NCBI GenBank assembly: GCA_050301775.1
Contig: JBNKZT010000001.1
Location: 1-59,264 of the forward strand
From: Candidatus Promineifilaceae bacterium
Lineage (GTDB): Bacteria > Chloroflexota > Anaerolineae > Promineifilales > Promineifilaceae
Length of the DNA: 59,264 nt
Direction of reading: 5' to 3'
The position numbers were made by a program, and so were the translations under genes. The first letter of the stretch is position 1; every line of letters starts with the position of its first letter. The notes under the pieces are model-generated. The model did not search any database, was not told the DNA's origin, and saw only the letters and a program-made list of their open reading frames with translations. Of the stretch, positions 1 through 45,377 are shown in pieces.

Positions 1-394
1 TCATTTGCTGAAAATCTGCACCGCTCACTTCCAGAAGCAGCTCGCCGGCGACGTTGTGGAATTGCACTTTTTTCAAATTTGGCGTCAGCAGTGTCCAATG
101 GTCATGGGTGACGATGAACACGTCCGCACCGGAGCGGGCCAGCGTACCCAATCCTTCACCGACCGTGTATTGGATCGCCTTTTGCCCATCTACCGTCACG
201 ACCTGCGGGTTGCCCAGCTCATCGGTCAAAGGTGCGAACAAGGTCATACGTACCGTCGCCGCCAGGATTTGCTGTTGGGCGTCCGCGTCAATCGTGTATG
301 AGGAAGCCAGAACTGTTTTGTTGAATTTCGTGAAGCCTAACGCGCTACTCACTACTAAAAGGGTTAAACTGCTGAACAAGATTTTGCGTAACAT
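1..394 (-). CDS. Secreted hypothetical protein, 5' part only (gene runs past the left window edge)
   Basis: Own minus-strand translation from ATG at 394-392: MLRKILFSSLTLLVVSSALGFTKFNKTVLASSYTIDADAQQQILAATVRMTLFAPLTDELGNPQVVTVDGQKAIQYTVGEGLGTLARSGADVFIVTHDHW... It is stop-free to the edge and has a signal-peptide-like N-terminus. It is missing from the ORF track only because no stop lies in the window. Confidence 0.5.
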   Translation of the reverse strand, partial: MLRKILFSSLTLLVVSSALGFTKFNKTVLASSYTIDADAQQQILAATVRMTLFAPLTDELGNPQVVTVDGQKAIQYTVGEGLGTLARSGADVFIVTHDHWTLLTPNLKKVQFHNVAGELLLEVSGADFQQM

Positions 395-470: not shown

Positions 471-669
471 CGTCATCAGCCTGTCTCAGTGGCGTCAACG
501 GTTCAAAACTTAGCGTCAACAAATCGTCAACATTTCAACTCTTTCGTTATGTAAAATTTAGGGCGGCATTGTTGGACGTGACTGGTTGACGATTTAGCGT
601 CGCCAACCGTCAACATTTTGGGGAAAATCGTCAACAAAGCCTCAAAACCGGTCATTTTTATGCTAGGAT
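471..669 (+). promoter_or_regulatory. Array of phased CGTCAAC heptamer repeats ending at an extended -10 (TGCTAGGAT, 661-669); candidate SARP operator/promoter in the divergent intergenic region
   Basis: Forward copies start at 471 (CGTCATC), 493, 514, 525, 608 and 629 (all CGTCAAC). Degenerate copies start at 640 (CCTCAAA) and 650 (GGTCATT). An inverted copy GTTGACG lies at 585-591. Spacings are 22, 21, 11, 83, 21, 11 and 10 nt, roughly multiples of one helical turn. The last repeat ends about 8 nt before TAGGAT. Confidence 0.5.
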
Positions 670-779: not shown

Positions 780-3700
780 ATGGACAGGAGGTCAATCATG
801 GGTACGTTGTCCTTGGCTCTTCTTGGTCGGTTTCAGGCTGTGTTAGATGGTGAAGTGCTGGCAGGTTTTCGCACCAACAAAGTCCAGGCGCTGCTCATCT
901 ACCTGGCGGTAGAACGAGCCAATCCCCATCGCCGCGAGTCGTTGATGACGCTGCTGTGGCCGGGCATGCCGGAACGCTCGGCGCGGCATAATTTGCGGCA
1001 GGTTCTCTATCATCTGCGGCGAGAAATTCCCGATTTGTCTCCTAAAGATAGTTCAGGTCAGACAACGGCCGTTCCCCTAATCCTGGCCAACCGTCAGACC
1101 ATCCAACTAAATCCACTGGCTGACGTTTGTATTGACACAGCCCAATTCGAAGCCCATTCGCGACAGGCACAAACCCATGACCACCTCGATTTGCTTACCT
1201 GCCGCGCCTGCCATCAGGAATTGGAAACGGCCGTCGCCCTCTACCGCGGCGATTTCCTGGCCGACTTCTACCTGGACGACAGCAACGAATTCGAAGAGTG
1301 GGCTGAGACTTCCCGGCAAACTTACCGCCGCAAGGCCCTCGATGCGCTGGAAACCTTGACAACCGTCAACACCCGCCAGAAAGCGTTCACTGAAGCCCGA
1401 GCCTTTGCCGAGCAGCAGCTTGAAATAGATGAACTGCGCGAAAGCGGCTACCGGCAGCTCATGGAAATTATGGCTCTCAGCGGGCAGCGTGAAGAAGCGT
1501 TGGCGCTGTACGAAACTTGCCGCCGCCGCCTGGCTGAAGAGTTGGGAATGGCCCCCACCACCCAAACGACGGCGCTTTACGAAAGAATCCAGGCCGGCGA
1601 CTTACGCTTTGACGTCCCCCAGGTTCAGGGTGTGCGCGGCTACGACCTCAAAGAAGAAATCGGCGAGGGCGCTTTTGGGACAATTCACCGGGCCATTCAA
1701 CCTGGCATTGGCCGGGAAGTGGCCGTGAAGGTAATTCGTCGCCGTTACGCCAATGATCCCGAATTTATCCGTCGTTTTGAGGCCGAAGCTCAAACCATCG
1801 CCCGCCTGGAACATCCCTACATTGTCCCCCTCTACGATTATTGGCGCGATCCGGAAGGGGCGTACCTGGTTATGCGCCTGCTGCGCGGCGGCAATCTGCT
1901 GGCTTCTTTAGAGGGCGGCCCCTGGGGAGTTGAGCCGACACTCAAGATGCTGGATCAGATCGCTTCTGCGCTGGCGGCTGCCCACCGGCAAGGCATCGTG
2001 CATCGGGACATCAAACCGGCCAACGTTCTTTTCGACGAAGCTGGCAATGCTTACTTGTCGGATTTTGGTATTGCCAAGAATTTGACGGGCGATATGCGGT
2101 TAACGGCCGTTGGCGCCATCATGGGCACACCCGACTACATCTCCCCGGAACAGCTACTCAACGATCCGGTCAGCCCTCAATCCGATCTGTACAGCCTGGG
2201 GGCTGTCTTGTACGAGACGTTGACCGGCGAAAAGCCCTTCCCCGATGCCTCCCTGGCCATGATCATCCAAAAGCAGCTCAACGAACCCATCCCACCGGTC
2301 AGCGCCAGCCGTTCCGATTTACCACGCCAGATTGACGCTGTCATCCAACGGGCGACGGCCAAAAGACCGCGTGATCGTTACCCGGATGTATTGGCAATGG
2401 CAGAAGCGTTCCGCCAGGCGACCCGTGAAAATGGGGTTCATGTGGCAGGGGTAACGCCTGTGCTGAGCGAAGTCGGAGTAGCCGTTCCCGCCGCAGTAGA
2501 CATCATCAACCCCTACAAAGGGCTGCGCGCCTTCCAGGAAGCCGACGCCGCCGACTTTTACGGCCGTGAAACCCTGGTCGAGCAATTAGTGGCCCGACTG
2601 GCCGAAAGCCGTTTCCTGGCCGTCGTCGGTCCCAGCGGCAGCGGCAAATCCAGCGCCGTTAAAGCCGGCCTGATTCCCGCCTTGCGTGAGGGGGCCGTCC
2701 CTGGTTCCGAAAAATGGTTTGTGGCCGAGATGGTTCCCGGCAGTTACCCGATGGAGGAATTAGAACTGGCCCTGCTGCCCATCGCCGTCGATCCGCCGCC
2801 CAGCCTGCTGGAACCGCTGCAAAAGGATAAGCGGGGGCTGCTGCGCACCGTCCGCCGCATTTTGCCCGATGAAGATGGGGCGCAATTGCTCCTGGTTGTG
2901 GATCAGTTTGAAGAGTTGTTTACGCTGGTCGAGGACGAAGCCCGACGGGTACATTTCTTAGACAGCCTGCTGGCTGCCCTCGCTGCGCCGCGCACGCCCC
3001 TGCGGGTGGTGGTGACGCTGCGGGCCGATTTCTATGATCGGCCGTTACAGTACCAGCCTGTTGGCGAACTGTTCAAACAGCATACGGAAGTCGTCCTGCC
3101 GCTAACCCAGGACGAATTGACCTGGGCCATTCAAGAACCGGCGCGGCGGGTTGGCGTGGGCATCGAAGAGGGCGTTGTAGCGGCGATGACTACCGACGTC
3201 GTTGACCAGCCCGGCGCACTGCCCCTGCTGCAATATGCGCTGACGGAGCTATTTGAGGAACGCCAGGATCATACGATGAGCCTGGCAAGTTACCGGGCGA
3301 TTGGCGGCGTGCCCGGCGCATTGGCCCAGCGCGCCGAGGAACTGTACGCCAATCTGGACTCAACCGAACAGGAGCGAGTTCGCCAGTTGTTCTTACGCCT
3401 GGTGACATTGGGCGAGGGCGTGGAAGATACACGGCGACGCGTGCGGTTGTCAGAGTTGGAAGCGTTATCGGTAAACGGTAAACAGTTATCGGTAAACGGT
3501 GATCGGTTGTCGGAAAACGAATTTCCGATTACTGATAGCCGATTACCGCTCACCAAATTCGGGGAACACCGTATCCTCACCTTTGACCGCGACCCCAACA
3601 CGCGAGAACCCACCGTCGAAGTCGCTCACGAAGCGCTGCTGCGCGAATGGCCCCGGCTGCGCCGCTGGCTGGATCAGAGCCGTGATGACATACGGATTCA

Positions 3701-6125
3701 GCGTCGTCTGGCTGCCGCCGCCGCCGAATGGGAACAATCCAGCCGCGATGAAGGATTTTTACTGCGCGGTTCACGGCTGGACTTGTTTTCCGGCTGGACG
3801 GCCGTTTCCGATCTGGCACTGACTCACGTTGAAAAAACATTTCTCGACACCTGCCTGACCGCCCAGCAAGAACGCCGGACAGCAGAAACAGCCCGGCAGC
3901 AGCGTGAACTGGAAACGATCCGGCAGTTGGCCGAAACTGAAAAAGTACGCGCCGATGAACAAACTCGATCGGCCAATCAACTGAGGCGGCGAGCGGTTTA
4001 TTTATCGGGTGCATTACTTATCGCTGCTGTTCTAGCTGTCGCCGCCCTCCTGTTTGGGCGGCAGGCCACAAAAAACGAACGGCTCGCTACCTCGCGGGAA
4101 TTGGCTGCCGCCGCACTCAACAACCTGGATGTAGACCCGGAGCGCAGTGTGTTATTAGCGCTACAGGCATTGTCAGAAGCCTACACAATCGAGGCCGAAA
4201 ATGCTCTACACGAGTCCATCCCAGAGTTGCATCTGTTGCACACATTAACCGGCCATACCGAAATGGTTGAGAGCGTCGCTGTTAGCCCGGATAGAACACG
4301 CCTGGCTTCAGCCAGCGACGATGGAATCGTAAAAGTATGGGATGTTACGACGGGCCAAGAACTATTGAGTTTCTCCACTTATCACACCGGAATTTCTATC
4401 TTCGGCCTCGCCTTCAGCCCGGATGGCGCCCGCATGGCGACAGCCAGCGATGATCAGACTGCGAAAGTGTGGGATACCACCACCGGTGAGCAATTGCTCG
4501 TCATCAATCATGGCGCTCCCCTCAGCGCCGTCGCCTTTAGCCCAGATGGGAAGCGCCTGGCAACGGCTGGCGCCGACGCAACAGCGAGGGTATGGGACAG
4601 CGCCTCCGGTCAACAACTGCTCGTCCTGACCGGCCATGCCGAGGCAATCCGGGCTGGCAGCATTCATCCCGGAGGTGTCATTGGCGTCATCTTCGCGCCA
4701 AACGGAAAACGACTCGTGACAGCCGGCGCCGATGGGACAGCCAGACTCTGGGATGCTGAGAATGGACAGGCGTTGTCGGTCATATCTGGCCATACGAACG
4801 AGATCTACATTGCCCTGAGTCCGGACGGGCAACGCTTGTTGACGGGTGGCTACGATGGATTCGTGAAGCTATGGGATATTTCGTCGGGGGCGGAGACAAA
4901 TGAGCCGTTGGTCATCATCAACCACGAGCAGTCGGCCCGCGCTGCCGCCTTCAGCCCAGATGGAACGCGGGTTGCGGCTGCCAGTCAGGATGGCGCGGCC
5001 AGGGTCTGGGATGCCGCTTCAGGGAGGAGATTGCTTACGCTGGTAGGCCACGCTGGAGTGGTGGACGATCTGACTTTTACGCCCGATGGGACGCGCCTGG
5101 TCACCGTGGGCGAAGACAAGACCGTAAAAGTATGGGACCTCGCCCCTGGAAGAGAATTGCTCACTCTGGTCGGCGCCGGGTCGCCTGCATACAGTCCTGA
5201 CGGGAAACGCCTGGCCACGGCTCAATCCGATGGTACGGTCGCTGTTCGGGACAGCACAACCGGTCAGGAGTTGCTAATCCTGGCAGGACACCCTGAATTT
5301 GGGACATTCCACATCGCATTTAGCCCAGACGGCAAACATCTGGCCACGGCCAGTTGGGACAGAACCGCCAAGCTGTGGGACGCTTCGACCGGCTCAGAGC
5401 TATTCACCTTGTCCGGCCACACGGATTACATCTTTAACGTTTCTTTCAACCAGGACGGGACCTGCCTGGTGACATCCAGCGCGGATGGGACAGCCAAAGT
5501 GTGGAATACGCGCACAGGCCAGGAGTTGTTTACGCTGCTTGGCCACAGCCGCTGGGTCCAGGGCGCCGCTTATAGCCCGGATGGGATGCGTATCGCAACG
5601 AGCAGCGACGATGGGACGGCGAGGATCTGGGATGCAGTTACTGGTCAAGAGTTGGAGACTCTGAACGCTGGGGTTAGTCTGTCAAGTATTGCGTTTAGCC
5701 CGGATGGTAAGCTCCTGGCGGCGGGCAGAAGTGATGGCAAGGTAATGGTCTGGGATATCTCGGGGGCAGAAAGCCGCGTGATAACGACTTTATCCGGTCA
5801 TTCAGCGTTTATCGGTCGCATTACTTTCAGTCCAGATGGCGCTCGCCTGGCCACGTCCAGCTTCGACGGGACAGCCAAGTTATGGGATCTGAAGACAGGT
5901 CAGGAGTGGCTGACGCTCTCTGCTGAGGACCCCCTGGACACGGCAATATTCAGCCCGGACGGGACACGATTGGCTACAGGTGCCTTTGGCGGTGGGCAGG
6001 TGAGGGTTTATGTCTTGGAACTTGAAGACCTGGTGGAACTGGCCCAGTCGCGTATCACTCGCTCGCTGACGGATGAGGAATGCCAGCGTTTTTTGCATGT
6101 GGCGGTGTGTCCGGAACGGCCGTAA
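780..6125 (+). CDS. Giant multidomain signalling protein: SARP (wHTH+BTAD) + Ser/Thr protein kinase + STAND-type P-loop NTPase + TM helix + 14 WD40 repeats
   Basis: Track ORF of 1781 aa. SARP/BTAD: LLGRFQAVLDGEVL..FRTNKVQALLIYLAVE, YRGDFLADFY, ESGYRQLMEIMALSGQREEALALYETCRRRLAEELG. Kinase: VAVKVI, HRDIKPANVLF, DFGIAK, GTPDYISPEQ. P-loop: VVGPSGSGKSS with LLLVVDQFEE. TM: AVYLSGALLIAAVLAVAALLFG. There are 14 units of the type SPDG..LATAS.DGTAKVWD. The start could also be the ATG at 798. Confidence 0.92.
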   Translation: MDRRSIMGTLSLALLGRFQAVLDGEVLAGFRTNKVQALLIYLAVERANPHRRESLMTLLWPGMPERSARHNLRQVLYHLRREIPDLSPKDSSGQTTAVPLILANRQTIQLNPLADVCIDTAQFEAHSRQAQTHDHLDLLTCRACHQELETAVALYRGDFLADFYLDDSNEFEEWAETSRQTYRRKALDALETLTTVNTRQKAFTEARAFAEQQLEIDELRESGYRQLMEIMALSGQREEALALYETCRRRLAEELGMAPTTQTTALYERIQAGDLRFDVPQVQGVRGYDLKEEIGEGAFGTIHRAIQPGIGREVAVKVIRRRYANDPEFIRRFEAEAQTIARLEHPYIVPLYDYWRDPEGAYLVMRLLRGGNLLASLEGGPWGVEPTLKMLDQIASALAAAHRQGIVHRDIKPANVLFDEAGNAYLSDFGIAKNLTGDMRLTAVGAIMGTPDYISPEQLLNDPVSPQSDLYSLGAVLYETLTGEKPFPDASLAMIIQKQLNEPIPPVSASRSDLPRQIDAVIQRATAKRPRDRYPDVLAMAEAFRQATRENGVHVAGVTPVLSEVGVAVPAAVDIINPYKGLRAFQEADAADFYGRETLVEQLVARLAESRFLAVVGPSGSGKSSAVKAGLIPALREGAVPGSEKWFVAEMVPGSYPMEELELALLPIAVDPPPSLLEPLQKDKRGLLRTVRRILPDEDGAQLLLVVDQFEELFTLVEDEARRVHFLDSLLAALAAPRTPLRVVVTLRADFYDRPLQYQPVGELFKQHTEVVLPLTQDELTWAIQEPARRVGVGIEEGVVAAMTTDVVDQPGALPLLQYALTELFEERQDHTMSLASYRAIGGVPGALAQRAEELYANLDSTEQERVRQLFLRLVTLGEGVEDTRRRVRLSELEALSVNGKQLSVNGDRLSENEFPITDSRLPLTKFGEHRILTFDRDPNTREPTVEVAHEALLREWPRLRRWLDQSRDDIRIQRRLAAAAAEWEQSSRDEGFLLRGSRLDLFSGWTAVSDLALTHVEKTFLDTCLTAQQERRTAETARQQRELETIRQLAETEKVRADEQTRSANQLRRRAVYLSGALLIAAVLAVAALLFGRQATKNERLATSRELAAAALNNLDVDPERSVLLALQALSEAYTIEAENALHESIPELHLLHTLTGHTEMVESVAVSPDRTRLASASDDGIVKVWDVTTGQELLSFSTYHTGISIFGLAFSPDGARMATASDDQTAKVWDTTTGEQLLVINHGAPLSAVAFSPDGKRLATAGADATARVWDSASGQQLLVLTGHAEAIRAGSIHPGGVIGVIFAPNGKRLVTAGADGTARLWDAENGQALSVISGHTNEIYIALSPDGQRLLTGGYDGFVKLWDISSGAETNEPLVIINHEQSARAAAFSPDGTRVAAASQDGAARVWDAASGRRLLTLVGHAGVVDDLTFTPDGTRLVTVGEDKTVKVWDLAPGRELLTLVGAGSPAYSPDGKRLATAQSDGTVAVRDSTTGQELLILAGHPEFGTFHIAFSPDGKHLATASWDRTAKLWDASTGSELFTLSGHTDYIFNVSFNQDGTCLVTSSADGTAKVWNTRTGQELFTLLGHSRWVQGAAYSPDGMRIATSSDDGTARIWDAVTGQELETLNAGVSLSSIAFSPDGKLLAAGRSDGKVMVWDISGAESRVITTLSGHSAFIGRITFSPDGARLATSSFDGTAKLWDLKTGQEWLTLSAEDPLDTAIFSPDGTRLATGAFGGGQVRVYVLELEDLVELAQSRITRSLTDEECQRFLHVAVCPERP
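3464..3552 (+). repeat. Palindromic repeat element inserted in frame inside the SARP-kinase-STAND gene
   Basis: Direct repeat GTTATCGGTAAACGGT x2 (3464-3479 and 3485-3500), followed by an imperfect hairpin GGTAAACGGTGATCGGTTGTCGGAAA / TTTCCGATTACTGATAGCCGATTACC. It is translated as LSVNGKQLSVNGDRLSENEFPITDSRLPL, a low-complexity stretch between otherwise ordinary protein sequence. Confidence 0.55.
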
Positions 6126-6155: not shown

Positions 6156-9140
6156 ATGACCAAGCTATCCCTCTCGGTACTTGGCCCCTTTGCTGCTTCG
6201 TTGGATGAACGGCCGTTAACCCAATTCCGTACCAAAAGCGTTCAGGCGCTGCTGGTCTATCTGGCCTGCCAGCCGGAAGTCCACTCGCGCGAGCAGTTGA
6301 TGGCTCTGCTCTGGCCGGACATCCCGCAGCAATCGGCTCAGGGCAGTTTGCGCCAGACGCTGTACCTGCTGCGCAAAGCGATTCCTGAACTGCCATCACG
6401 CGATGGCAGCGGCATGGTTCCCCTCCTGCTGACTGACCGGCAGACGATACAGATGAACCCGAACGGCAGTTTCGACCTGGACCTACGCACCTTCACCGAA
6501 AAGCTCAAAGGGGACGAGTCTGGCTGGCCGGAAGCGGTTACCCTGTACCGGGGCGATTTCCTGGCCGATTTTTACTTACCAGACAGCGCTCCCTTTGAAG
6601 AATGGGCCGCCGCCCGCCGCGGCGATTTGCGCCGTCAGGTTCTGGATGCGCTGGACACGCTCACAAAAAACAATATCCAGTCCAATGACCTGGACACAGC
6701 CGAAACCTACGCCCGCCGCCAGCTAGAGCTTGACAACCTGCGGGAGAGTGCCCACAGGCAGTTGATGGAGATTTTGGCCAGGAACAGCCGTCGCCGGGCC
6801 GCCTTGTCCCATTACGAAATCTGCCGCCAACTTTTGCAAGATGAACTGGGTATTGAGCCTTCGGCCGAAACGCAGGCGCTCTACCAGCAAATACGCTCCG
6901 GTGCATCACCTTTCGTGCTGCCTACAAAGGGAACTCCAGACACAATTATCAAACCATCACCGAGAACTGTGGCCCATCCGCCCCACAACCTACCGACTCA
7001 GGTGACCGCCTTTGTCGGTCGGCAGCGTGAACTCTCACAGACTGCCAATCTACTTAAAGGCACTCGGCTGCTGACCTTAACCGGGCCAGGCGGCTCTGGC
7101 AAGACCCGATTAGCTTTGCAGCTAGCTGCGGCACAACTAACACACTTCCCCGATGGTGTTTTCTTTGTTTCTCTGGCTTCGCTCAAAGATCCACGGCTGG
7201 TCGAACAAACCATCGCCAGCATTTTGGATGTCAAACCAGTCGAGGGACAGAGCGTCCTGAAAGCTTTGCAAGATTATCTGAGGCCGAAACAGGTCTTGCT
7301 AATCCTGGACAATTACGAGCATTTACTTGATGCGGCGACCGTTGCCAGCAACTTGCTATCGTCGACCGACCAACTGCGGATTGTGGCCACCAGCAGGGAA
7401 CCACTCCAATTGCGCGGCGAACAACTTTACCCGGTGCCCCCCCTCCGGTTGCCTGGAGAAGACGCTGAGACCAAGGATGAAGTAGCCCAGGTAGAGGCTG
7501 TGCAACTCTTTCTCCTCCGCGCCCAGGCCACCGACCCCACTTTCCAATTAACCGACGACAACTTGGCAACTGTAGTGACCATCTGCCAACGCCTGGATGG
7601 TCTGCCCCTGGCCCTGGAATTGGCCGCTGCTCGTCTGAGTGCTTACTCGCCCGCCTTACTTTTGGAACGTCTCTGCAGCCGACTGAACGTGTTGACCAGG
7701 GGGCTGCGCGACTTACCCCATCGGCAGCAAACGCTGCGGGATACCATCGCCTGGAGCTACGACCTGCTTAACGATGACGAGCAGTTGCTCTTTTCTCGAT
7801 TGGGTGTTTTCGCTGGCCGTTGGACTTTAACCGACGCTGAGGCAGTCTGTAGTCCCGGCTTGTCTGTGGCGGTGGCCGATGGCCTCGAGTCACTTATCGA
7901 CAAGAATTTAGTGCAACTGGCGAGAGAAATGATTGACCAATCCTGCTATGACATGCTGGCCGCTATCCGCGAGTTCGCCGTCGAGCAACTCCAGATTGAT
8001 CAAGAAGAGTTAGCTGTTGTGGAACGGCTGGCTCGCCATGTGGCCAACCAACTGCCAGCGACAGTCCCCACCGACCGTTATGGCGCCAACCGGCAAATCT
8101 GGTTTAAGTTTCTGGCACTGGAGATGGATAATATTCGCACCGCATTGGCTTATTTTCTTGACCACGCCGAAGTAGAGCCAGTTCAGCAAATCATAGACGA
8201 GGTGTCCGATTACTGGGCGGATCGGCTTGTCGAGGAAGGCAGCGATTGGCTGGATAGGTTACTCGACCTGTTGGGCGACGACCCAACGGCCGCCAGAGGG
8301 AAGGCGCTTTTCCAACAAGGGAATCTATACGTTTATGGTTATGACAATCGGCGGGCAGCGGCTCTCTTGGAAGCAAGCACCCAATGTTTTCAAGCCTGTA
8401 ACGATCAGCAGGGTTTGTTTGACGCGCTTGATTCACTTGGGCTGGCTTATCACGCACTCGGTGATTACGAACAAATGCGCCAGACTTTTAAAAAGCTTAT
8501 TCCCCTCGCTGAGAAATTGGGCGACAACTCAGCCTTGCGTCGTGCGCTGTGTAGGAGTGTTTTGGGAACAACTGATTTTATCAAAGCGCGAGAGACCTTA
8601 TGTCGTTGTCTGGAACTGGCCGCCGAAGACGGTCAACCGGGTACTTTCTACAAGCAGTGGCTTGCCGATATTGAGATACGACTAGGCAACTATACCCTAG
8701 CCAGCAACATGTTACGAGAATGCCAGACAGCCTGGCAACAGATGGGCCAAGAGCGCAGCGTGGTCGCGATTCACTTTTTGCTGGGTGAGGCTGAGATAAG
8801 ACGTGGCCAACTCAACGACGCTGGTCGTATCCTAACAGAGGGCCTGGATTTAGTCAGCGACTTCGCCGACGTTGATTTTCCACCCTATTTTTACGAGCGC
8901 TTCGCCACACTGGCCGCTGCCCATGGGGATTTTGAGCGGGCAGCGCAACTGTTCGGAGCGGCCGAGGCCGCTCGTGAGCTGCCGGGGGCCACAGCCCTCA
9001 ACCCCGAGTATCGGCCAGCCTATGAGAAGGACGTGGCTGTTGTTCGGGCCGGGTTGTCTGAGGCGGCGTTTGCATCCGCCTGGCAGCGCGGTCGGGTTAT
9101 GAGTATTGAAGAAGCCACGGCTTTCGCACTTGGGAGATAA
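6156..9140 (+). CDS. AfsR-like regulator: SARP (wHTH+BTAD) + NB-ARC/AAA-type ATPase + TPR-like repeats
   Basis: Track ORF of 994 aa. The N-terminus is paralogous to the upstream gene (VLGPFAASLDERPLTQFRTKSVQALLVYLAC; YRGDFLADFYL; ESAHRQLMEILARNSRRRAALSHYEICRQLLQDELG). P-loop LTGPGGSGKTRLALQLA, Walker-B-like LLILDNYEHLL, and a helical repeat C-terminus. Confidence 0.9.
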   Translation: MTKLSLSVLGPFAASLDERPLTQFRTKSVQALLVYLACQPEVHSREQLMALLWPDIPQQSAQGSLRQTLYLLRKAIPELPSRDGSGMVPLLLTDRQTIQMNPNGSFDLDLRTFTEKLKGDESGWPEAVTLYRGDFLADFYLPDSAPFEEWAAARRGDLRRQVLDALDTLTKNNIQSNDLDTAETYARRQLELDNLRESAHRQLMEILARNSRRRAALSHYEICRQLLQDELGIEPSAETQALYQQIRSGASPFVLPTKGTPDTIIKPSPRTVAHPPHNLPTQVTAFVGRQRELSQTANLLKGTRLLTLTGPGGSGKTRLALQLAAAQLTHFPDGVFFVSLASLKDPRLVEQTIASILDVKPVEGQSVLKALQDYLRPKQVLLILDNYEHLLDAATVASNLLSSTDQLRIVATSREPLQLRGEQLYPVPPLRLPGEDAETKDEVAQVEAVQLFLLRAQATDPTFQLTDDNLATVVTICQRLDGLPLALELAAARLSAYSPALLLERLCSRLNVLTRGLRDLPHRQQTLRDTIAWSYDLLNDDEQLLFSRLGVFAGRWTLTDAEAVCSPGLSVAVADGLESLIDKNLVQLAREMIDQSCYDMLAAIREFAVEQLQIDQEELAVVERLARHVANQLPATVPTDRYGANRQIWFKFLALEMDNIRTALAYFLDHAEVEPVQQIIDEVSDYWADRLVEEGSDWLDRLLDLLGDDPTAARGKALFQQGNLYVYGYDNRRAAALLEASTQCFQACNDQQGLFDALDSLGLAYHALGDYEQMRQTFKKLIPLAEKLGDNSALRRALCRSVLGTTDFIKARETLCRCLELAAEDGQPGTFYKQWLADIEIRLGNYTLASNMLRECQTAWQQMGQERSVVAIHFLLGEAEIRRGQLNDAGRILTEGLDLVSDFADVDFPPYFYERFATLAAAHGDFERAAQLFGAAEAARELPGATALNPEYRPAYEKDVAVVRAGLSEAAFASAWQRGRVMSIEEATAFALGR

Positions 9141-9247: not shown

Positions 9248-11209
9248 TCACTTTAGCTGCACAAGCCCTAATCGTTCCAGCAGTTCAAATTCGCGCACAA
9301 TGAGTTCAGCATCGCGGATACCAATTTCCATTTCGATCCGGTCGATTATGTCCAGGACAGTGCACCGGCCGTCGGCCCAATATTCGGCCAGCGTTTGGGC
9401 GGTGTAGGCTCCCTTCCGGTCTTTGCGGAATTGGTAAAGTTCCTCTTTTTCGGCAGCGGTTAATTCGGCCGTGGACCCAATGGCCAACCCTGGTCCGCGA
9501 TAATTTCGCTTGGGAATGAGCGTAGCTGCTTTTTGTTCCCATTCGCCCGGTTCTGCCGGGGCTACGGATTCACCGTTACTGAAAGAGTCGATGCGGGCGC
9601 GGGCTAATTCGGTGAATTGCAGCGCCTCATCGTAAATGTCTTCCAGGATCGGTCCCACATCAGCCCAGAGACGGTGGAGAGAATTCAGTCCGGCGCGAAA
9701 ACGATCCAGTTGGTAGTCGAGTTGGCGGTTGGGCATTCCCCCTTTACTATTTCCCTTCTCCACCATCTCTGTCACCAGCCCCTGTGCCCGATGGGCCAGC
9801 CGGGCCTGGAAGCGGGCTAGCATCTCGTGGGCCAGCCAGGCTGTTTCCTTTTCGCCGGCCGTGGCGATGAAATAGGCAAACGCCGCCGCCAGCGTGCCGG
9901 AACGATGCAACGTCGCCGGGCTGACCTTCTCAAGCGTATCCTGCGATGTGTGGTAAAACTTGTCCGGCCACTGGATGAACATCGGCATGGGCACGCCTAC
10001 CGTCGGGTCAGAAAAAATGTAATGGTCCGAGCCGCCGGTGAAGCCGGTGGTGGCATAGCGAAAATGGGCGTAGCCTTCCAGTCCGCCGTAGGTCTCCACG
10101 TCGTCGAACAATTCCTCGCGCAGCCGCTCGGCTAAATCGACGGCAAATGAAGCGGCAGCATCGGGCGGCCGCTCCAGAACCATGACCGCCCCTGTTTGCT
10201 CCTGATCAGCGCCAACCATGTCTAGATTTAGCCCGGCGATCATGCCCGGAATGTCAGCCTCGTGCCGCGAGAGGTAGGCGAAGGAGCCAGTCATTTCCGG
10301 CATCCACAGGAAGCGGATGCTGCGTTTAGGTGGTGGCAGCTGGCCATTGTCAATCAGCCGCTTGAGGGTGCGGGCCGCTTCCAGGTTGGCGGCCACCCCG
10401 CTGCCGTTGTCGTTGGCCGAGGGCTGGGGGTGGCAGAGATGGCTGACCAGGATGGTTTGTTCGTTGGGATGGGTTGTGCCGGGGAGTACGGCCGTTACCA
10501 CCTCAATCTCGCCATCATACAATTCAGCCTGAATATCGGCACGCACCTTGACCGGCCCCTTCTTGAGCAGGCCGCGCAGCCACTGCCCCTGGCGCGGAGT
10601 CAAGACAAAACCAAGACATTCCGTTTCATCGCCCGTCCACCAAAACGAGGTGTACTGCCGGGCATCGGCCAAGTCCATCGGCAGGCGCACTGGCGGGGCC
10701 AGCGCCATCCCGTCAAACAAAATGCCAATCGCGCCAAACTTTTCCACCGCCAACTGCTGCACGCGGCTTACGCTGCCATTCGTCAGGACGATTTTGCCGG
10801 TCACATCCAAGCCATCGTAATCAGCTTCTTCCTGACCGTCTTCCACCAGCACCACTTCCGCTTCGCCCTGAAAGGGGATGCTGCGCTGGATGAGGGCGAT
10901 TTTCTCTTCGCGGTAATCGGCCAGTTTGCGTGCTTCTTTCTCCGGTTCGATGAGGTGCAGCGTGGCGCTGGCGGCCGACCATTCCTGGAAAGAGTGGGCT
11001 TCCCAAAACTTCGTTTGATAATTGGCTGGATAGGTTTCGATGTGGGCTTCCAGTCCCGCTTTTTGCAGTTCGTCCAACACGTATTGGGCGGCGGCGCGGT
11101 AGCCGGGGCTGGCCTGGATGCGGTGGTGGCGGATAATGGCGGCGACGTCTTCTTTAGCGGCCGTTCCGGAAAACTCTCTGCGGATGATGGAAAAAGTCTT
11201 CTTTAACAT
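9248..11209 (-). CDS. M28-family aminopeptidase-like protein (DUF4910-type architecture)
   Basis: Track ORF 9248..11254. The likely start is the ATG at 11209 (MLKKTFSIIRREF). The metallopeptidase motif region is HLCHPQPSANDNGSGVAANLEAA, with LNLDMVG and GGSDHYIF. The family assignment is from memory of these motifs. Confidence 0.8.
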   Translation of the reverse strand: MLKKTFSIIRREFSGTAAKEDVAAIIRHHRIQASPGYRAAAQYVLDELQKAGLEAHIETYPANYQTKFWEAHSFQEWSAASATLHLIEPEKEARKLADYREEKIALIQRSIPFQGEAEVVLVEDGQEEADYDGLDVTGKIVLTNGSVSRVQQLAVEKFGAIGILFDGMALAPPVRLPMDLADARQYTSFWWTGDETECLGFVLTPRQGQWLRGLLKKGPVKVRADIQAELYDGEIEVVTAVLPGTTHPNEQTILVSHLCHPQPSANDNGSGVAANLEAARTLKRLIDNGQLPPPKRSIRFLWMPEMTGSFAYLSRHEADIPGMIAGLNLDMVGADQEQTGAVMVLERPPDAAASFAVDLAERLREELFDDVETYGGLEGYAHFRYATTGFTGGSDHYIFSDPTVGVPMPMFIQWPDKFYHTSQDTLEKVSPATLHRSGTLAAAFAYFIATAGEKETAWLAHEMLARFQARLAHRAQGLVTEMVEKGNSKGGMPNRQLDYQLDRFRAGLNSLHRLWADVGPILEDIYDEALQFTELARARIDSFSNGESVAPAEPGEWEQKAATLIPKRNYRGPGLAIGSTAELTAAEKEELYQFRKDRKGAYTAQTLAEYWADGRCTVLDIIDRIEMEIGIRDAELIVREFELLERLGLVQLK

Positions 11210-33904: not shown

Positions 33905-36900
33905 ATGAAAAAACGTGCCGTGTTGGCCATTTTGCTTGTCAATATTGTTTCAGTTTTGATTATTTTGCAGGTTAACCAGGCGGCGGCGACGGTAACGGCC
34001 GTGCAGCCCGCCGATGTTTATATCGGACGTAGAACGTCAACCGGCATCATTAATACGTCAAACTTGTCCATTTTTGGCCCCAATATTTGTATCTATTACG
34101 GCGACCCATTCTCGCCCTGGAACAGCCCCTGGGCGCCTAACTCTTACACCTACCATTACCGCATCCTCATTCCGTCCGATTATCCTTCCGATGTCCTGCG
34201 CGTGGAACTGTTCGACCCCGATTCTATAAACCAGGCGACCAATACCCATGCTATTAGCTATTCAGCCAATGCCCACGCTCTCGATCCAGTGAGTTTCCCA
34301 CTGGGGACCGTCAATAAAAATTGCAGTAGCTCAGATCGTAGGAACGCTTGCTTGATAAGCACCGGCGAAATGAGTCTAGTCGATCCTACGGGTGCCCCAC
34401 CGGTATTGTTGGACCAGATAAATCCATTTTGGTTTGTGCGTATAGATGAAAATCGTGGTGCTGGAGCTGCTCCTGGTAATGGGCTTTGTGGCATGCCCGG
34501 TTATTATAATCCTGCTTTTAACACATCAACCCTTTACGAACTGTTTTACTACACTCAAAACTCCGATGGCTCAACGACCAGGACTCCCCTGGCAAACTAC
34601 ACTGGTCAAACAGGTGATAATATTCGTGATGATGGAAGCCATTTGACCGACATGCATTGGGTTTCGCCCGGCGGCACTCAAATCTACGACCAACCGGCTG
34701 CCGTACCGGTTGATCCTGGTTCGTCCAGCGATTTTGAATTGAGCATTGCTCAAGACCTTCCCGGCATTGTCACCGACCCAGCGACTGGCGATCGGTATGT
34801 TTACCTGGACATCACCACCTTGAGCGGTGCTTCGGAGAATGGCTTCGATATTTGGGCCGGGCCGCTTTATCCAGATGTTTCCAGTGATGTAAATATTCGT
34901 AATATTCGGGTTCTCAACAGCCCTTCCAGCCACAACGCCAAAGGCGTGGTCGTATCCGCTTTAGAGTACAATCTCGTCAACTCTAATTACAGCAACGTGA
35001 TTGACATTCCCTTGACTTACGTTAATGCAGATCAGGCTGGGCAGCCCGTTTATGTATCCTTGTTCGATACCGATTCTGGTGCAGAGCCTCCTATCATTTT
35101 TTACCTGGATACGGTGCCTGAATCGGATTGGTCACTTACTTTTGGCGCTGGCGATCCTGATCCGGATGGGGTTAGCGGCCGTTGCAAGCCCGGTTTCTGT
35201 GACGGCAAATGGGTCGATCCGCTTTACCAAATTCAAATGCCGGACTTGACGAGCGCCTGCGACCTGGCCAATCCTGATTCACAGATTTGCACCCCATTTT
35301 ACGGCGGCCGCCTCATGGCTCATTATATCGGTGGGGTTGGCGACACGTACGCCTGGCAGGTCAACGCCGAAGAAGGTCAGCCTGATCCAACGGCCGGCTG
35401 CTCCGCTTTTCCCATTGCCATCAGCAAATTTGTTCGCTCCGTATCACCACCCGGTTCAGGGGCTAACCCTTATCCTGATGCCAATGATTTTGATTATCCC
35501 GACGGTAAAGACGCACCCGAACCACCGGAGTATATTGATTTTCCAAACCATATACCTGATGTGCCCTTGCTCCAGGCCAAGGAAGGCTCTGTTTTTCTGG
35601 TTAGAGCAGGGACTCAGCCGGGCAATTTTGGCTGGCTGCTGTGGAACAATATCTACCAGACAGGCAGTGCTGCTACTTTAAGTCGAAGTTTAACCTGGCC
35701 TGGTGACAGTCTTGACTATCCTTTTAATGGTTATTACGAACCAGGCGATCCGACGGACATGTCGCTGGGTATTGATGACTGGGTGGCTAGCAATGATGGT
35801 AATGTCAACTCAATGGATGTTCTCCAGGCATTGAATGAACACATTGATCTGGGACGCGTTCTCCGGCTGCCTATTTGGGATTATTCTACTCAAGTTACCG
35901 GAGATACTATGTACCAGATGAGCGGATTCGCCTTGTTCCGTTTGCAGGGCTACAACATCAGTCAAAACTGGCTGCTGCTGGAGTTTATTGGCTGGGATGA
36001 CTCTTGTGGCCAGGAAACAGTCTATTCAGAGAGCGTCACGATTGACGGTCCGGTAACAGGGCTGGTGAATACATCCCATACATTTACGGCGACGGTCAGC
36101 CCTATTACAACGACGCTGCCGTTATCGTACACTTGGGAAGCAACCGATCATGCACCTGTTACGCACAGCAGCGGTTTGACCGATGTCATTTCCTACACCT
36201 GGTCGATTACGGGCACTAAAACTATTACGGTTTCTACCCGATATGGCGTTGTTGATACACATACGATCACGATTGACCCGGCGCTGGCCGATTTGACGAT
36301 TGGGGATTTGACGCTGCTCTCCCCGTTGCCTATTGCCGCCAATGAGCCGGTGGACTTTCAGGTAACCATTAGCAACACCGGTGACGTGGCCACCAATCAG
36401 ACATTTTTCGTTGATGTGTTCCTGGACCCCACGGAAGTGTATTCGACCAGTATCCCCCTCAACCAGAGTTCTGGTTACGTGGCGGTTGGTTCGTTGGGCG
36501 CACATGCCAGCCGGGTGATCACGATGACGACAGCCGGCTTTGCTACCGAACCAGACCCGCATCAGGTGTATGCGATGGTGGACTCGGTGCGGCAGGTGAG
36601 CGAAGGGAATGAAGCGAATAACATTGTCGGGCCTTTAGTTGTCAATGACGTGGGCGTACCACTACACTCAATTACACTGCTGCCTAACTGTGGCACTGGT
36701 CCTGACGTGCAGTTTACGGTGATGGGTTTTAACTGGCCGCAAAATACGGATGTTCACTTATACTGGGACTATATGCTTCAAAGCATAATCCAGACAGGGG
36801 GCCTCACCTCTTTTTCACAGACCTGGCAAAAATTTGGGCTATCGGATGGGAGTTATACCTTAACTGCGGTCGCAAATGGTCATACGGCAACGGCCGTATT

Positions 36901-42578: not shown

Positions 42579-45122
42579 TTACTGAGCGGTAGCCATCCAG
42601 TTGATAGATACAGCCTGGCTGTCGGGATATGCATAAAGCAAACCTATGTTGGACCCGCCGTAATAGCTGACGGCCGGTTGACCATCGATAACAGCTAACG
42701 AAGTAGCCCCATTCCATCCCGAATAAGCGGCAGCCCCAACAACAGTAGGCGTATTCCACGAAGCACCATTAGCATCACCGGCCTGGGCAAACTTCACCTG
42801 GGAATTTGAATAGTCAAAGTAGCTGATGGCTGGTTTACCATCAACGACTACCAGCGAGGAATATTCACCAACATCGCCTACAGTATCTACACCAATTGGT
42901 GTGTTCCAGGTTGTGCCATTGGCATCACTGGCCTGAACATACAGTAAATCATTTGAAGCGTAGTCGTAATAGCTAATAGCCGGTTTGTTATTGACCAGGG
43001 CTAATGAACTGTCCAGTCCGTCAGTACCCACCGTATCGATGACGACGGAAGTGTTCCAGGTTGACCCATTGGCATCACTGGCTTGAATGTATTTCAAAGA
43101 GGTATTTGTTCTGTCATAATAACTGATAGCCGGTTTATCATTTACGACCAGGAGTGAATTGAATTCGCCAACCCTACCAGTCGAATCTACTCGTACCGGG
43201 GTGTTCCAGGTTGTACCATCGGCATCTTGGGCCTGGACATACATCAAATCATCTTTGTTGCTGTCTTCATAATAACTAATGGCCGGTTTGCCATTTACCA
43301 CAGCCAAGGAAGTGTGCGTGCCCACCTGACCGGAATCTACCGTAACGGGCGTATTCCAGGTTGCCCCATTAGCGTCTGCGGTCTGGACATATTTCAAGCT
43401 GTCGTTGGTCGTGTCGTGGTAGCTGATAGCCGGGCTGCCATTGACGATGGCCATGGACAGGTGGTCGCCGACGTTGCCAGCTGCGTCCACGGTGACCGGG
43501 GCACCCCAGGTCGTGCCGGCAGCATCCAACGCCTGGACGTATTTCAAATCGCCATTTGTCGCGTCGTAGTAGCTGATGGCCGGTTTGCCGTTGACCAGAA
43601 GTAGGGCCGAGTATTGCCCGACATTGCCATTGGCATCTACTGTGGTGGCACTGGCGACTGCTGTGAAGAGCGCCTGGGCTGTAAACCCATCGGTTGTTAC
43701 GTCGGTGACAAATAATCGAGCGCCACCGGCCAGTATCGATGAATTTGTTTGTAATGTCAGGTTGACAATTGGCTCAGAAGTAAACGCTGTATCAAAAACA
43801 ACCGGGAACTGCACGGCCGTTGTCGAACCAAACCCACCCAGGTCGGGGACGTTAATTTTGCCCGATTGCAGGTTGGCCGATCCGCCGCTGCCCATGAGAC
43901 TGCTTAAATCAACCGAAATCGTGCCGCCGCCGTCGGTGATTTCTAGCACTGCACCATTCAGGCTGGCTGACAGGTTAAACTCATTGCCCGGGTCAGCATC
44001 GGCGTCACCTGTATTTGCAATGGTTGTGCCATTAATTGCAATGCCATCCCCGGCGTCGTAAGTTGGACCGGGTTCACCTTGCGGGCCTTGTTCACCCTGG
44101 GGGCCTTGCGGACCCATCAGACCTTGCTCGCCTTGCAAACCCTGTTCACCCTGCGGGCCTTGTTCGCCTTGTAGTCCTTGCTCGCCTTGTAAACCCTGTT
44201 CACCCTGCAGGCCTTGTTCACCCTGTGGTCCTTGGGGACCCATCAGACCTTGTTCGCCCTGCGCGCCTTGTTCACCCTGGGGACCTTGCGGACCCATGGG
44301 GCCAACTGCGCCGTCAGTGCCAGCGGGGCCTTGTTCGCCTTGCGGGCCTTGCGGACCAGTTGCACCGTCAGCGCCGGCCGGGCCTTGCTCGCCTTGTGGT
44401 CCTTGCGGGCCGGCGGGGCCTTGTTCGCCTTGTATTCCTTCGGGCAGGCTGATGGTTCCGCCGCCGCCAGAGAGGATCAGGTTACTGCCATCCAGAGTCA
44501 GGATTTGTAATTCGTTGGTGGGGTCAGCGTCAGCGTCTTCCGTGCCATCTTGCAAGCTGCTCAAATCCAGGGCGATGGTGCCACCAGCGTCGGTCAGTTC
44601 CAGGGTTGTGCCGGTAAGGAGCAGGCTGGTAACGAGTTCGTTGAGCGGATCGGCGTCTTCGTCACGGCCGTATAACGCATAGGGTGCGGCCGTTAAGGGC
44701 TGCATCGGGGTCAACGCCGTCAGCGGCGTAACGCCATCGGGAGCAACATGAATCGACAACCAGCGGGCCGAGCCATCAAAAGCGCCAATGCCGAAATCGA
44801 GTTCGACGGTAAACAGACCATCGGTTACCAGAACATCGGGGAGGATAACGGTGCTGCCAACTTGTACGGCCGTTGCCGCATCTGCGCCATCGTAAAGGTA
44901 AAACTCAAAATCAAACAGGCCATTGGCCGGTGTACCATCTTGATTAAGCTGACCCTGATAGGTAAAGCCTTGACTCAATGGGGATGCGGCTGCACCGCGG
45001 CTGAAAACGGCTAAAATGAGTAAAAATATGAGGACAGCCAGGAAGGTTAAGAGACTGTTTTGTTTTTGTTTCGACCCAGCGCTCAATCTTCCAAACGGAT
45101 ACTGGTTGTTACGAAAATTCAT
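42579..45122 (-). CDS. Collagen-like surface fibre protein: N-terminal beta-sandwich-like region, about 40 G-X-Y triplets, H-type-lectin-like segment, 7-blade beta-propeller
   Basis: Track ORF 42579..45152. The likely start is ATG 45122 (MNFRNNQ), with GAGGAG 8 nt upstream. TM/signal [60 protein letters not shown]... tract. [29 protein letters not shown]. Seven units of about 45 aa of the type [33 protein letters not shown]. Confidence 0.85.
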
Positions 45123-45377
45123 TTGTTTTGCTCCTCGTGCGAAACCCAGCAACCATTACCGGCATAAACCAATTGAAAAAATCATGGGAATGTATTGAAA
45201 AAATTTGGGGTTGCGAACTACTTCCGCCAATAATGGTTATTTATTTGTTTGCACAAAATATTTTCTGTCATTAATAATGTACCACTGGATTGTTAAAATA
45301 TTTGTTACAATCGTAAGATTTCTACCTGGGAAAAAGGTACTGGGGAGCAGGGTACTAGGCGGCTGGCACGTTGCCGC

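Follow-up and report, generated by a model that had tools for sequence, protein, structure and literature searches.

The 59,264-nt stretch of DNA analyzed here (the window; Candidatus Promineifilaceae bacterium, contig JBNKZT010000001.1) contains, upstream of the gene for a 1775-residue protein that begins with a SARP domain followed by a kinase (the SARP-kinase gene), an array of repeated CGTCAAC(A) boxes that is real and conserved in homologous loci. The array is likely to be the operator by which this SARP-type regulator of a filamentous Chloroflexota bacterium controls its own gene, that is, an operator of a known kind in a phylum and a promoter geometry for which none has been described. 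The first-pass annotation of the sequence had proposed a single autoregulatory SARP operator of canonical placement. The core of the proposal is supported by the recurrence of the boxes in non-syntenic loci, by the covariation of boxes and recognition helix, and by the SARP fold of the adjacent gene product; the canonical placement and the single array did not hold.

The exact heptamer occurs on the forward strand at positions 493, 514, 525, 608 and 629 and on the reverse strand at 585-591, and is accompanied by a 6/7 copy at 471; these coordinates, and the successive spacings of 22, 21, 11, 83, 21, 11 and 10 nt, had been given correctly in the first pass. The repeat core is an 8-mer, CGTCAACA, which is present at 514, 525, 608 and 629 and reads CGTCAACG at 493. 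Four forward-strand elements make up a distal group: a weak box, CGTCATC (471-477), for which orthologues keep CCGTCAyC, lies 22 nt 5' of box a (CGTCAACG, 493-500), which is followed after 21 nt by box b (CGTCAACA, 514-521) and after a further 11 nt by box c (CGTCAACA, 525-532), with boxes a, b and c recovered in the orthologue alignment. The proximal group comprises the inverted copy (585-591, reverse strand; GTTGACG on the forward strand), which is located 16 nt 5' of box DR1 and whose GTTGAC is kept in orthologues; a weak forward box, DR0 (CGTCGCC, 598-604), 10 nt 5' of DR1, which had been overlooked and aligns with CCGTCACC or CCGTTACC in orthologues; and the exact forward boxes DR1 (608-615) and DR2 (629-636), both CGTCAACA and 21 nt apart. 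Degenerate copies that had been reported at 640 and 650 exist as weak matches (CCTCAAA, 5/7, and GGTCATT, 4/7, respectively), but nothing equivalent is seen in 24 further non-redundant promoters of this type.

Counted on both strands, the window contains 17 exact copies of CGTCAAC, compared to 8.0 +/- 2.7 in shuffled sequence, and six of the 17 are packed into 143 nt; the remaining copies all fall within long open reading frames. With the rate outside the region as background, the Poisson probability of six or more copies in 150 nt is 6e-13, or about 3e-10 when corrected over all windows. Among all heptamers of the window, only the genome-wide palindromic ACGGCCG clusters as strongly.

The protein encoded by the SARP-kinase gene (798-6125, forward strand) consists, according to Pfam, of a SARP region (winged helix-turn-helix plus BTAD; residues 1-270), a Ser/Thr kinase (282-527), an nSTAND1 NTPase (572-985) and WD40 propellers (approximately 1146-1745). 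The BTAD module (PF03704) is matched at residues 112-265 with E=1.6e-23, and with E=3.8e-24 in the product of the next gene, SARP2 (6156-9140, forward strand), an AfsR-like protein of SARP, NB-ARC/AAA and TPR modules (Pfam) whose SARP domain is 47% identical to the first. The AlphaFold2 model of residues 1-290 (mean pLDDT 89.5) shows a beta-sheet, three helices and a wing, with a long helix at residues 59-76; its top Foldseek matches are the SARP domain of AfsR (TM 0.70-0.81, E ~1e-12) and EmbR, with E values ranging from 1e-12 to 1e-10, and phmmer aligns residues 2-268 with AfsR 23-266 at a constant offset of +20. An OmpR-type winged helix-turn-helix, recognized by the model, Foldseek and phmmer, is followed by BTAD, as is characteristic of the SARP family. 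The N-terminal domain is thus predicted to have the SARP fold, and the protein is the presumed binder of the boxes.

Conservation of the boxes and of the promoter

Loci with homologues of the SARP-kinase-nSTAND1-WD40 protein or with the box pattern are designated by L-numbers; a genome scan with one genome per species yielded 80 loci. The homologues derive from metagenome-assembled genomes (MAGs) of Anaerolineae labelled Promineifilaceae, Ardenticatenaceae or Leptofilum, and the closest protein match among reference genomes is 70% identical. The spacing of exact 6-mer direct repeats was assessed in the -350 to -30 regions of 74 of the 80 loci, and shows a sharp peak at 21 nt (184 pairs, compared to 5.5 in shuffled sequences and 4 in coding controls), with lesser, harmonic peaks at 11, 32, 43 and 54 nt. 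About 45 loci possess an 8-mer pair of the general form CGTNANCA at a spacing of 21 nt. A motif-agnostic scan, which demanded an 8-mer of any sequence with a second copy at 21 nt (7/8 or more identical) and then TGnTAnnnT 21-26 nt downstream, recovered this architecture in 33 of the 37 loci with a protein identity of at least 58%, in 6 of 12 at 50-57% identity, in 2 of 24 below 50%, and not once in 874 kb of control DNA. The linkage between site and SARP gene, with two SARP genes directly downstream in the window, extends to at least 41 homologous loci.

The layout of window positions 585-669 is reproduced among other neighbors in L001 and L002, as GTTGACG, CGTCAACA-N13-CGTCAACA, approximately 26 nt, and TGCTAnGAT; L003 has the same spacings with CGTTAGCA/CGTTAACA as its box. 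The 25 non-redundant promoters with CGTCAACA boxes share the consensus C-CGTCAACA-aAT..g..aAAAc-CGTCAACA-AA ... tttTGTGcTA.gAT, the segment from the second box to the T-rich run that precedes the -10 being unconserved. Since many of the loci are non-syntenic and the spacers between the boxes have diverged, the repeats represent a phylogenetic footprint rather than the shared ancestry of neutral DNA.

It is consequently extremely improbable that the repeats lack a regulatory function and are remnants of duplications or mobile elements, opposite-strand TTGACG -35-like hexamers, or plasmid-type iterons. The minus-strand GTTGACG does contain TTGAC, and the 21-nt spacing resembles that of iteron arrays, but conservation is confined to the 8-bp cores and does not extend to the diverged spacers, the orientation relative to the SARP gene is fixed, and the variants GTTAACG, GTTTACG and GTTCACG lose the -35 likeness yet are equally conserved. 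Moreover, no replication gene adjoins, and the loci reside on chromosomal contigs of up to several Mb. An identity as iterons, i.e., repeats of 17-22 bp conserved throughout and associated with a rep gene or AT-rich origin, was rejected, as only 8 bp per unit are conserved and the neighbors are a SARP regulator and a secreted protein.

Downstream of DR2, the extended -10 element TGCTAGGAT noted in the first pass is present at 661-669 on the forward strand (hexamer TAGGAT, 664-669), and TGnTAnnAT recurs at a fixed distance from the 21-nt pair in homologous loci, being found 21-26 nt after the downstream 8-mer in 41 of them; 874 kb of control sequence lack this combination. A sigma-70 consensus scan of positions 300-900 returned no -35/-10 pair, so that the -10 was recognized by its conservation instead; according to the scan and the promoter alignment, the proximal promoter has no usable -35 hexamer. 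Transcription would start near position 676, which places DR2 at -47 to -40, DR1 at -68 to -61, DR0 at -78 to -72, the inverted copy at -91 to -85 and the distal boxes (471-532) at -205 to -144. The last repeat had been described as ending about 8 nt from the -10, as in characterized SARP promoters. The conserved boxes instead end 26-27 nt 5' of the hexamer (27 nt in the window, 26 nt in most homologues). Homologous promoters keep neither the copies at 640 and 650 nor any sequence at DR2+11 or DR2+21, so that the 3' repeat 8 bp from the -10 that marks SARP operators is missing here. The spacing, in contrast, is that of a SARP operator, with 7-8-bp cores one or two helical turns apart, except that the two-turn spacing is 21 rather than 22 nt.

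With centers at approximately -43.5 and -64.5 relative to the putative start, DR2 and DR1 would occupy positions like those of class II and class I activators, respectively. The segment between them shows partial conservation and could be taken for a degenerate box, e.g., CGGCAAAA at DR1+11 in L004, and a low-affinity middle site that is filled cooperatively is therefore possible.

In one clade (L025, L031, L034, L066, L069 and L030; boxes CGTTAACA/CGTTAGCA, or CGTTACCA in L030), an inverted box, TGCTAACG (GGTAACG in L030), is located inside the core promoter, between DR2 and the -10, where it may serve as an extra autorepression site; promoters of the window type do not have it. The position of this box in the core-promoter spacer, typical of repression, and the near-consensus extended -10 (TGTGcTAnnAT), which can work without a -35, would fit negative autoregulation or mixed control. 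We nevertheless consider such control unlikely for the window, where the boxes lie 5' of the core promoter and end at about -40, a position from which bound proteins usually activate, and where an acceptable -35 hexamer is missing; in addition, all characterized SARPs are activators (PMC10936776, PMC10972967).

Box variants and the recognition helix

The boxes differ among paralogues, and the versions CGTCAACA, CGTTAACA, CGTTAGCA, CGTAAACA, CGTGAACA, CGTCACCA, CGTTACCA, CGTCAATA and CGTCAAAA were found, the two box copies of a locus changing in concert. None of the eight genomes with two or three assigned paralogues (0/8) uses the same box for them, which is suggestive and, by a rough estimate, not significant alone. 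The inverted copy (585-591 in the window) remains unchanged by box type in most T-type paralogue loci.

Covariation with the proteins was assessed in 44 N-terminal regions (500 residues, 491 columns) as mutual information with base 4 of each gene's own box. Among the 491 columns, residues 72 and 64 rank highest and residue 60 fourth, and all three lie within or beside the predicted recognition helix (residues 59-76). At the offset of +20, H72, Q68 and R60 are equivalent to R92, T88 and S80 of AfsR; in the AfsR-promoter complex, R92 and T88 make the base-specific contacts, whereas S80 touches the backbone (PMC10936776). The positions read by R92 and T88 are 2 bp apart, as are box positions 4 and 6, which residues 72 and 68 track.

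The pairing can be followed through the box types. Loci with CGTCAACA have Y71 with N, H or L at position 72, those with CGTAAACA have Y71-Y72 (5/5), all close members with CGTTA(A/G)CA have F71-H72, and those with CGTGAACA have Y71 with Q or R at 72. A residue other than Q at position 68 occurs only in L012 (N) and L063 (T), which are two of the three loci with C at box position 6. In a neighbor-joining tree from which the recognition helix was left out, the combination of Tyr72 and an A as box base 4 has separate origins in three lineages (L040; L026/L027/L032; L082), and L040 is nested among CGTCAACA (C-type) loci. Because the box covaries with the helix at the positions that contact DNA in AfsR, the evidence points to binding of the boxes by the SARP domain of the adjacent gene.

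Throughout the OmpR/PhoB class of winged helices, binding sites are typically direct repeats with an 11-nt period, and the boxes might accordingly be sites of an unlinked regulator, e.g., an OmpR/PhoB-type response regulator, with the SARP gene as a mere target. We judge this very improbable: the box varies along with the SARP paralogue next to it, also inside single genomes, and covaries with the residues of that protein's recognition helix, changes that a factor encoded elsewhere would have to follow by diversifying in step. A PhoB/OmpR-type pho box was likewise discarded as an identity for the array, as the strong boxes are 21 nt apart and 5' of the -35 region, and the linked protein carries BTAD, kinase and STAND modules and no receiver domain.

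Distal module, SARP2 and neighboring genes

The array had been treated as one unit, with all copies on one face of the helix. The direct repeats are indeed phased at 21/11 nt, but the distal boxes constitute a separate module, whose phase relative to the proximal one is not conserved in orthologues. In an alignment of six orthologous intergenic regions, the conserved blocks follow in the order: Shine-Dalgarno sequence of the divergent left gene; TGTGATTTCTCTTGTTCGCAGTTTCG; distal boxes; an indel-rich spacer; GTTGAC, CGTcaCCAAC, DR1, DR2 and the extended -10. The last distal and first proximal boxes are 83, 104, 83, 154, 128 and 96 nt apart.

In three loci (L001, L111 and L113), a distal-type module is located directly 5' of the SARP2 orthologue, beside the conserved divergent gene, and the SARP-kinase gene with a proximal-type module follows 2-4 kb further on; the 11-nt pair formed by boxes b and c of the window is identical to that in front of SARP2 in L111 and L113. 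In these SARP2 orthologues, TGTGTTAAAAT or TGTGCTAAAAT ends 6 nt before the ATG (L001 2083-2267, L111 5392-5560, L113 315-483), which suggests a leaderless transcript driven from the distal-type boxes. A second promoter behind the distal boxes of the window was also considered, as TGTAAAAT at 550-557 resembles TGTGTTAAAAT; it is not conserved in other two-module loci, and the idea was set aside as speculation. Since the distal module precedes SARP2 and the proximal module precedes the kinase gene elsewhere, the order in the window (left gene, distal module, proximal module, kinase gene, SARP2) suggests that two promoter regions with the same box have been fused, SARP2 having apparently moved behind the kinase gene. 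The two genes are only 30 nt apart in the window, and SARP2 is therefore probably co-transcribed with the SARP-kinase gene.

This arrangement raises the alternative that the boxes are bound mainly by SARP2, with the kinase gene as its target. In L001, L111 and L113, the SARP2 orthologue behind the CGTCAACA boxes has the recognition helix SAQGSLRQTLYLLR, which is that of the window SARP2, and the SARP-kinase of L019, which uses CGTCAACA, has G64 and L72 as in SARP2, indicating that a helix of the SARP2 type is compatible with the box. On the other hand, the helix used to measure the covariation was that of the SARP-kinase protein itself, and in L002 and L003, the two loci inspected with 6-kb flanks, the boxes precede a SARP-kinase gene with no SARP2-type gene nearby. 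The alternative therefore seems quite unlikely as stated, although both proteins may bind and the two readings are not exclusive.

Control of the gene by its own SARP domain, the explanation we prefer, would operate as follows. The SARP domain of the 1775-residue protein would recognize the 8-bp CGTCAACA via helix 59-76, with residues 72 and 68 reading box positions 4 and 6, and the co-transcribed SARP2 may bind the same boxes. On the proximal module (DR0 at 598, DR1 at 608 and DR2 at 629), just 5' of an extended -10 (TGCTAGGAT) that is unaided by a usable -35, the bound SARP domains would recruit or stabilize RNA polymerase, resulting in positive autoregulation. By analogy with AfsR, the activity of the DNA-bound protein might be released only upon activation of the STAND/WD40 part. 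The distal module (471, 493, 514 and 525) would ancestrally belong to the divergent promoter region of the left gene and SARP2; its probable role in the window is to add sites for cooperative binding or to control the left gene.

Several points weigh against this explanation. The support is comparative throughout. The Trans_reg_C match of the SARP-kinase protein is below the Pfam threshold (19.1 vs 26.2 bits). The covariation is confounded by phylogeny, as box types largely follow clades, and has exceptions: L024 combines Tyr72 with CGTCAATA, and the distant L039, L043 and L053 pair other residues with T at position 4. Such confounding is common to all columns, yet the top columns are those predicted by the SARP-DNA structure. 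The geometry is unlike that of characterized SARP promoters, and the 'sigma adaptation' mechanism of AfsR is therefore not simply transferable; a good extended -10 may work without an activator, so that regulation could be of either sign; and, because SARP2 orthologues occur behind the same boxes elsewhere, either SARP may be the binder. Finally, the distances of 83-154 nt between the modules rule out a fixed helical phase between them.

The first-pass annotation had also offered the heptamer as a motif for a regulon search, with a scan for clustered repeats as a check. Run on the window and the related loci, the scan tied the 21- and 11-nt pairs to SARP-kinase and SARP2 genes; no target beyond these two genes emerged from the window, the 679 kb of loci or a metagenome-wide scan. 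In the window, CGTNANC-N14-CGTNANC occurs only at 493 and 608, apart from a chance match in a coding region at 50091, and a CGTCAAC/CGTCAAA pair at 34035/34056 (21 nt apart) was dismissed as a target because it falls within a gene that codes for a secreted protein. In the window and the 679 kb of loci, CGTCAACA pairs always have the orientation of the gene and a spacing of 21 or 11 nt, never 10 or 22, and all are upstream of SARP-kinase or SARP2 genes except those of L032, at -479, and L095, with no recognizable gene downstream. The metagenome-wide scan with box-N13-box-N21-26-TGNTANNNT gave 27 matches. A SARP-kinase homologue lies downstream of 14 of these, at 70-150 nt in 13 cases and, in L098, about 960 nt from the boxes, behind a gene for a secreted protein; the other 13 are mostly unrelated 21-nt tandem repeats, with a few chance-like matches plus L095. 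As far as is visible from these searches, the operator appears to be autoregulatory. The L095 sequence (10946-11006 of a metagenome contig) combines a perfect CGTCAACA-N13-CGTCAACA with a TGTTAGAAT promoter, no gene being recognizable for about 700 nt, and could represent a degraded locus or an unrecognized target.

The left gene (2-394, reverse strand) is cut by the contig end. Its 5' part encodes the N-terminal 131 residues of a secreted protein of about 267 residues with a signal peptide, as judged from the translation and tblastn, and its product matches no Pfam family. The genes on both sides had been said to start with SARP domains, which is true of the two downstream genes but not of this one. 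By tblastn, homologues are found divergently upstream in L004, L005, L006, L008, L009, L010, L012, L017, L024, L029, L037, L089, L090 and L110, and also in L001 and L111, amounting to at least 16 loci. As the distal module always adjoins the left gene, the left gene is a candidate co-regulated target. Full-length homologues, e.g., in L111 (4588-5391, reverse strand), have about 267 residues, a signal peptide and a GNSGGGA motif near the C terminus; the motif recalls the GDSGG of trypsin-like serine proteases, and the protein is possibly protease-like.

Between the left gene and the distal boxes lies a block, TGTGAAATCTCTTGTTCGCAGTTTCG (437-462), which is near-invariant in the orthologue alignment and also present in L001, L006, L009, L111 and L113. 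The consensus scan gave no sigma-70 promoter in the block, and reading it for a leftward promoter yielded no convincing sigma-70 or ECF-type match; it may be the promoter of the left gene or a site for another factor. A related cCAGTaTCgcc block occurs about 45 nt 5' of DR1 in paralogue loci with other boxes.

The start of the SARP-kinase gene had been set at ATG 780, which gives the longest reading frame. ATG 798 is more likely, since a Shine-Dalgarno sequence, GGAGG, lies at 787-791 and both the GGAG and the ATG (798-800) align with orthologue starts; the N termini of the homologues are conserved from this Met onward. With the start at 798, the divergent intergenic region spans 395-797. A 13-bp hairpin, GCCTGCCAGGCA / GCCTGACAGGCA, occupies positions 752-780, just 5' of the Shine-Dalgarno sequence, and orthologues have a different hairpin in the same place. 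No Rfam family matches positions 380-900, and the putative 5' untranslated region (676-800) folds no better than shuffled sequences (z = -0.3).

The wider neighborhood encodes an M28 peptidase, an aminotransferase, a cNMP-binding histidine kinase, a peptide ABC transporter, UvrC and a collagen-like protein, and domain annotation of the window neighborhood revealed no biosynthetic cluster. The collagen-like protein (857 residues; 42579-45152, reverse strand) contains G-x-y repeats (Pfam Collagen, E=4.5e-20) encoded by 18/27/54-nt tandem repeats at 44072-44449. The palindromic octamer ACGGCCGT occurs 70 times in the 59 kb (e.g., at 1065, 1227, 2103 ... 58599), compared to 1.2 expected, and related loci (620 kb) contain 0.7 copies per kb. 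In this it resembles highly iterated palindromes such as the cyanobacterial HIP1; one literature search turned up no account of a palindrome of this kind in Chloroflexi.

Significance and comparison with known systems

SARPs and their heptamer operators are the textbook means of antibiotic control in Streptomyces. Reviews describe SARPs as exclusive to Actinobacteria (PMC10972967); this is a statement of known distribution rather than a structural definition, and the SARP loci described here, from Anaerolineae MAGs, do not conform to it. The SARP fold and the logic of phased direct repeats thus occur in Chloroflexota, attached to a kinase-STAND-WD40 sensor and probably controlling the sensor's own gene, and the promoter geometry (21-nt spacing, boxes 5' of the -35, extended -10) departs from the AfsR paradigm. 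The paralogues provide a natural specificity series, in which four bases at box position 4 are matched to residue 72, and position 6 to residue 68. The series makes a DNA-recognition code of SARPs testable by point swaps, and could supply orthogonal pairs of activator and operator. The promoter, operator and predicted start also offer a handle on bacterial NLR-like proteins with a transcriptional output.

More tentatively, and with considerable doubt, we suggest that filamentous Chloroflexota carry several NLR-like SARP-kinase-nSTAND1-WD40 sensors per genome, each on a private CGTNANCA box read by residues 72 and 68, as insulated positive-feedback switches, to which the subfamily of the window adds SARP2 and the secreted protein as a sensing-response module. 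If so, the three genes would form a self-contained module for immunity or cell-cell recognition and not a regulator of an antibiotic cluster.

The closest known counterpart is AfsR. The afs box of the afsS promoter (Streptomyces coelicolor; PDB 8HVR, 8K60) consists of two adjacent 11-bp repeats that extend from -40 to -19 and overlap the -35, and the AfsR protomers contact the first 8 bp of these repeats (PMC10936776). Characterized SARP promoters generally have a box that overlaps the -35, its 3' repeat being 8 bp away from the -10 (PMC10936776). Like AfsR, the window protein combines a SARP domain (OmpR-type winged helix plus BTAD) with a STAND NTPase and a sensor made of repeats; the direct repeats lie on one face of the DNA, with an 8-bp conserved core here against the 8-bp contacted core in AfsR; the residues homologous to R92 and T88 covary with the box; and the predicted fold matches at a TM of 0.70-0.81. 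Unlike those of AfsR, the strong boxes of the window are 21 nt apart and end 26-27 nt 5' of the hexamer of an extended -10. The protein possesses a Ser/Thr kinase and WD40 instead of TPR, belongs to the Chloroflexota, and would target its own gene.

A second counterpart is PimR, of the SARP-LAL type, whose heptamer operator is located in the pimM-pimR intergenic region, 5' of the -35, and for which activation of the class I type has been proposed; the heptamer is the same as that of SanG and PolR (PMC3367932). PimR is also a large multidomain SARP with direct repeats in a divergent intergenic region beside its own gene and without overlap of the -35; its consensus, CGGCAAG, agrees with CGTCAAC in 5/7 positions, and it represents a documented exception to the rule that places the repeat 8 bp from the -10. 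The PimR operator differs in having three repeats with 4-bp spacers (an 11-nt period), 93 nt from the pimM start, and PimR activates another regulator gene. In the window, the spacing is mainly 21 nt, the boxes are nearer to the promoter, and the target would be the SARP gene itself.

Two further systems are more distant. In the pho boxes of PhoB, adjacent 11-bp units replace the -35 about 10 bp 5' of the -10, and the binder is a phosphorylated response regulator without BTAD. The likeness to PhoB and OmpR lies in head-to-tail winged helices on direct repeats, a 7-8-bp core, an 11-bp period and a promoter without a good -35. MalT, a STAND activator of the maltose promoters, oligomerizes upon activation and occupies several phased boxes upstream, and is thus a possible analogue for the five to seven boxes of the window. 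MalT differs in its LuxR-type helix-turn-helix and its unrelated box sequences.

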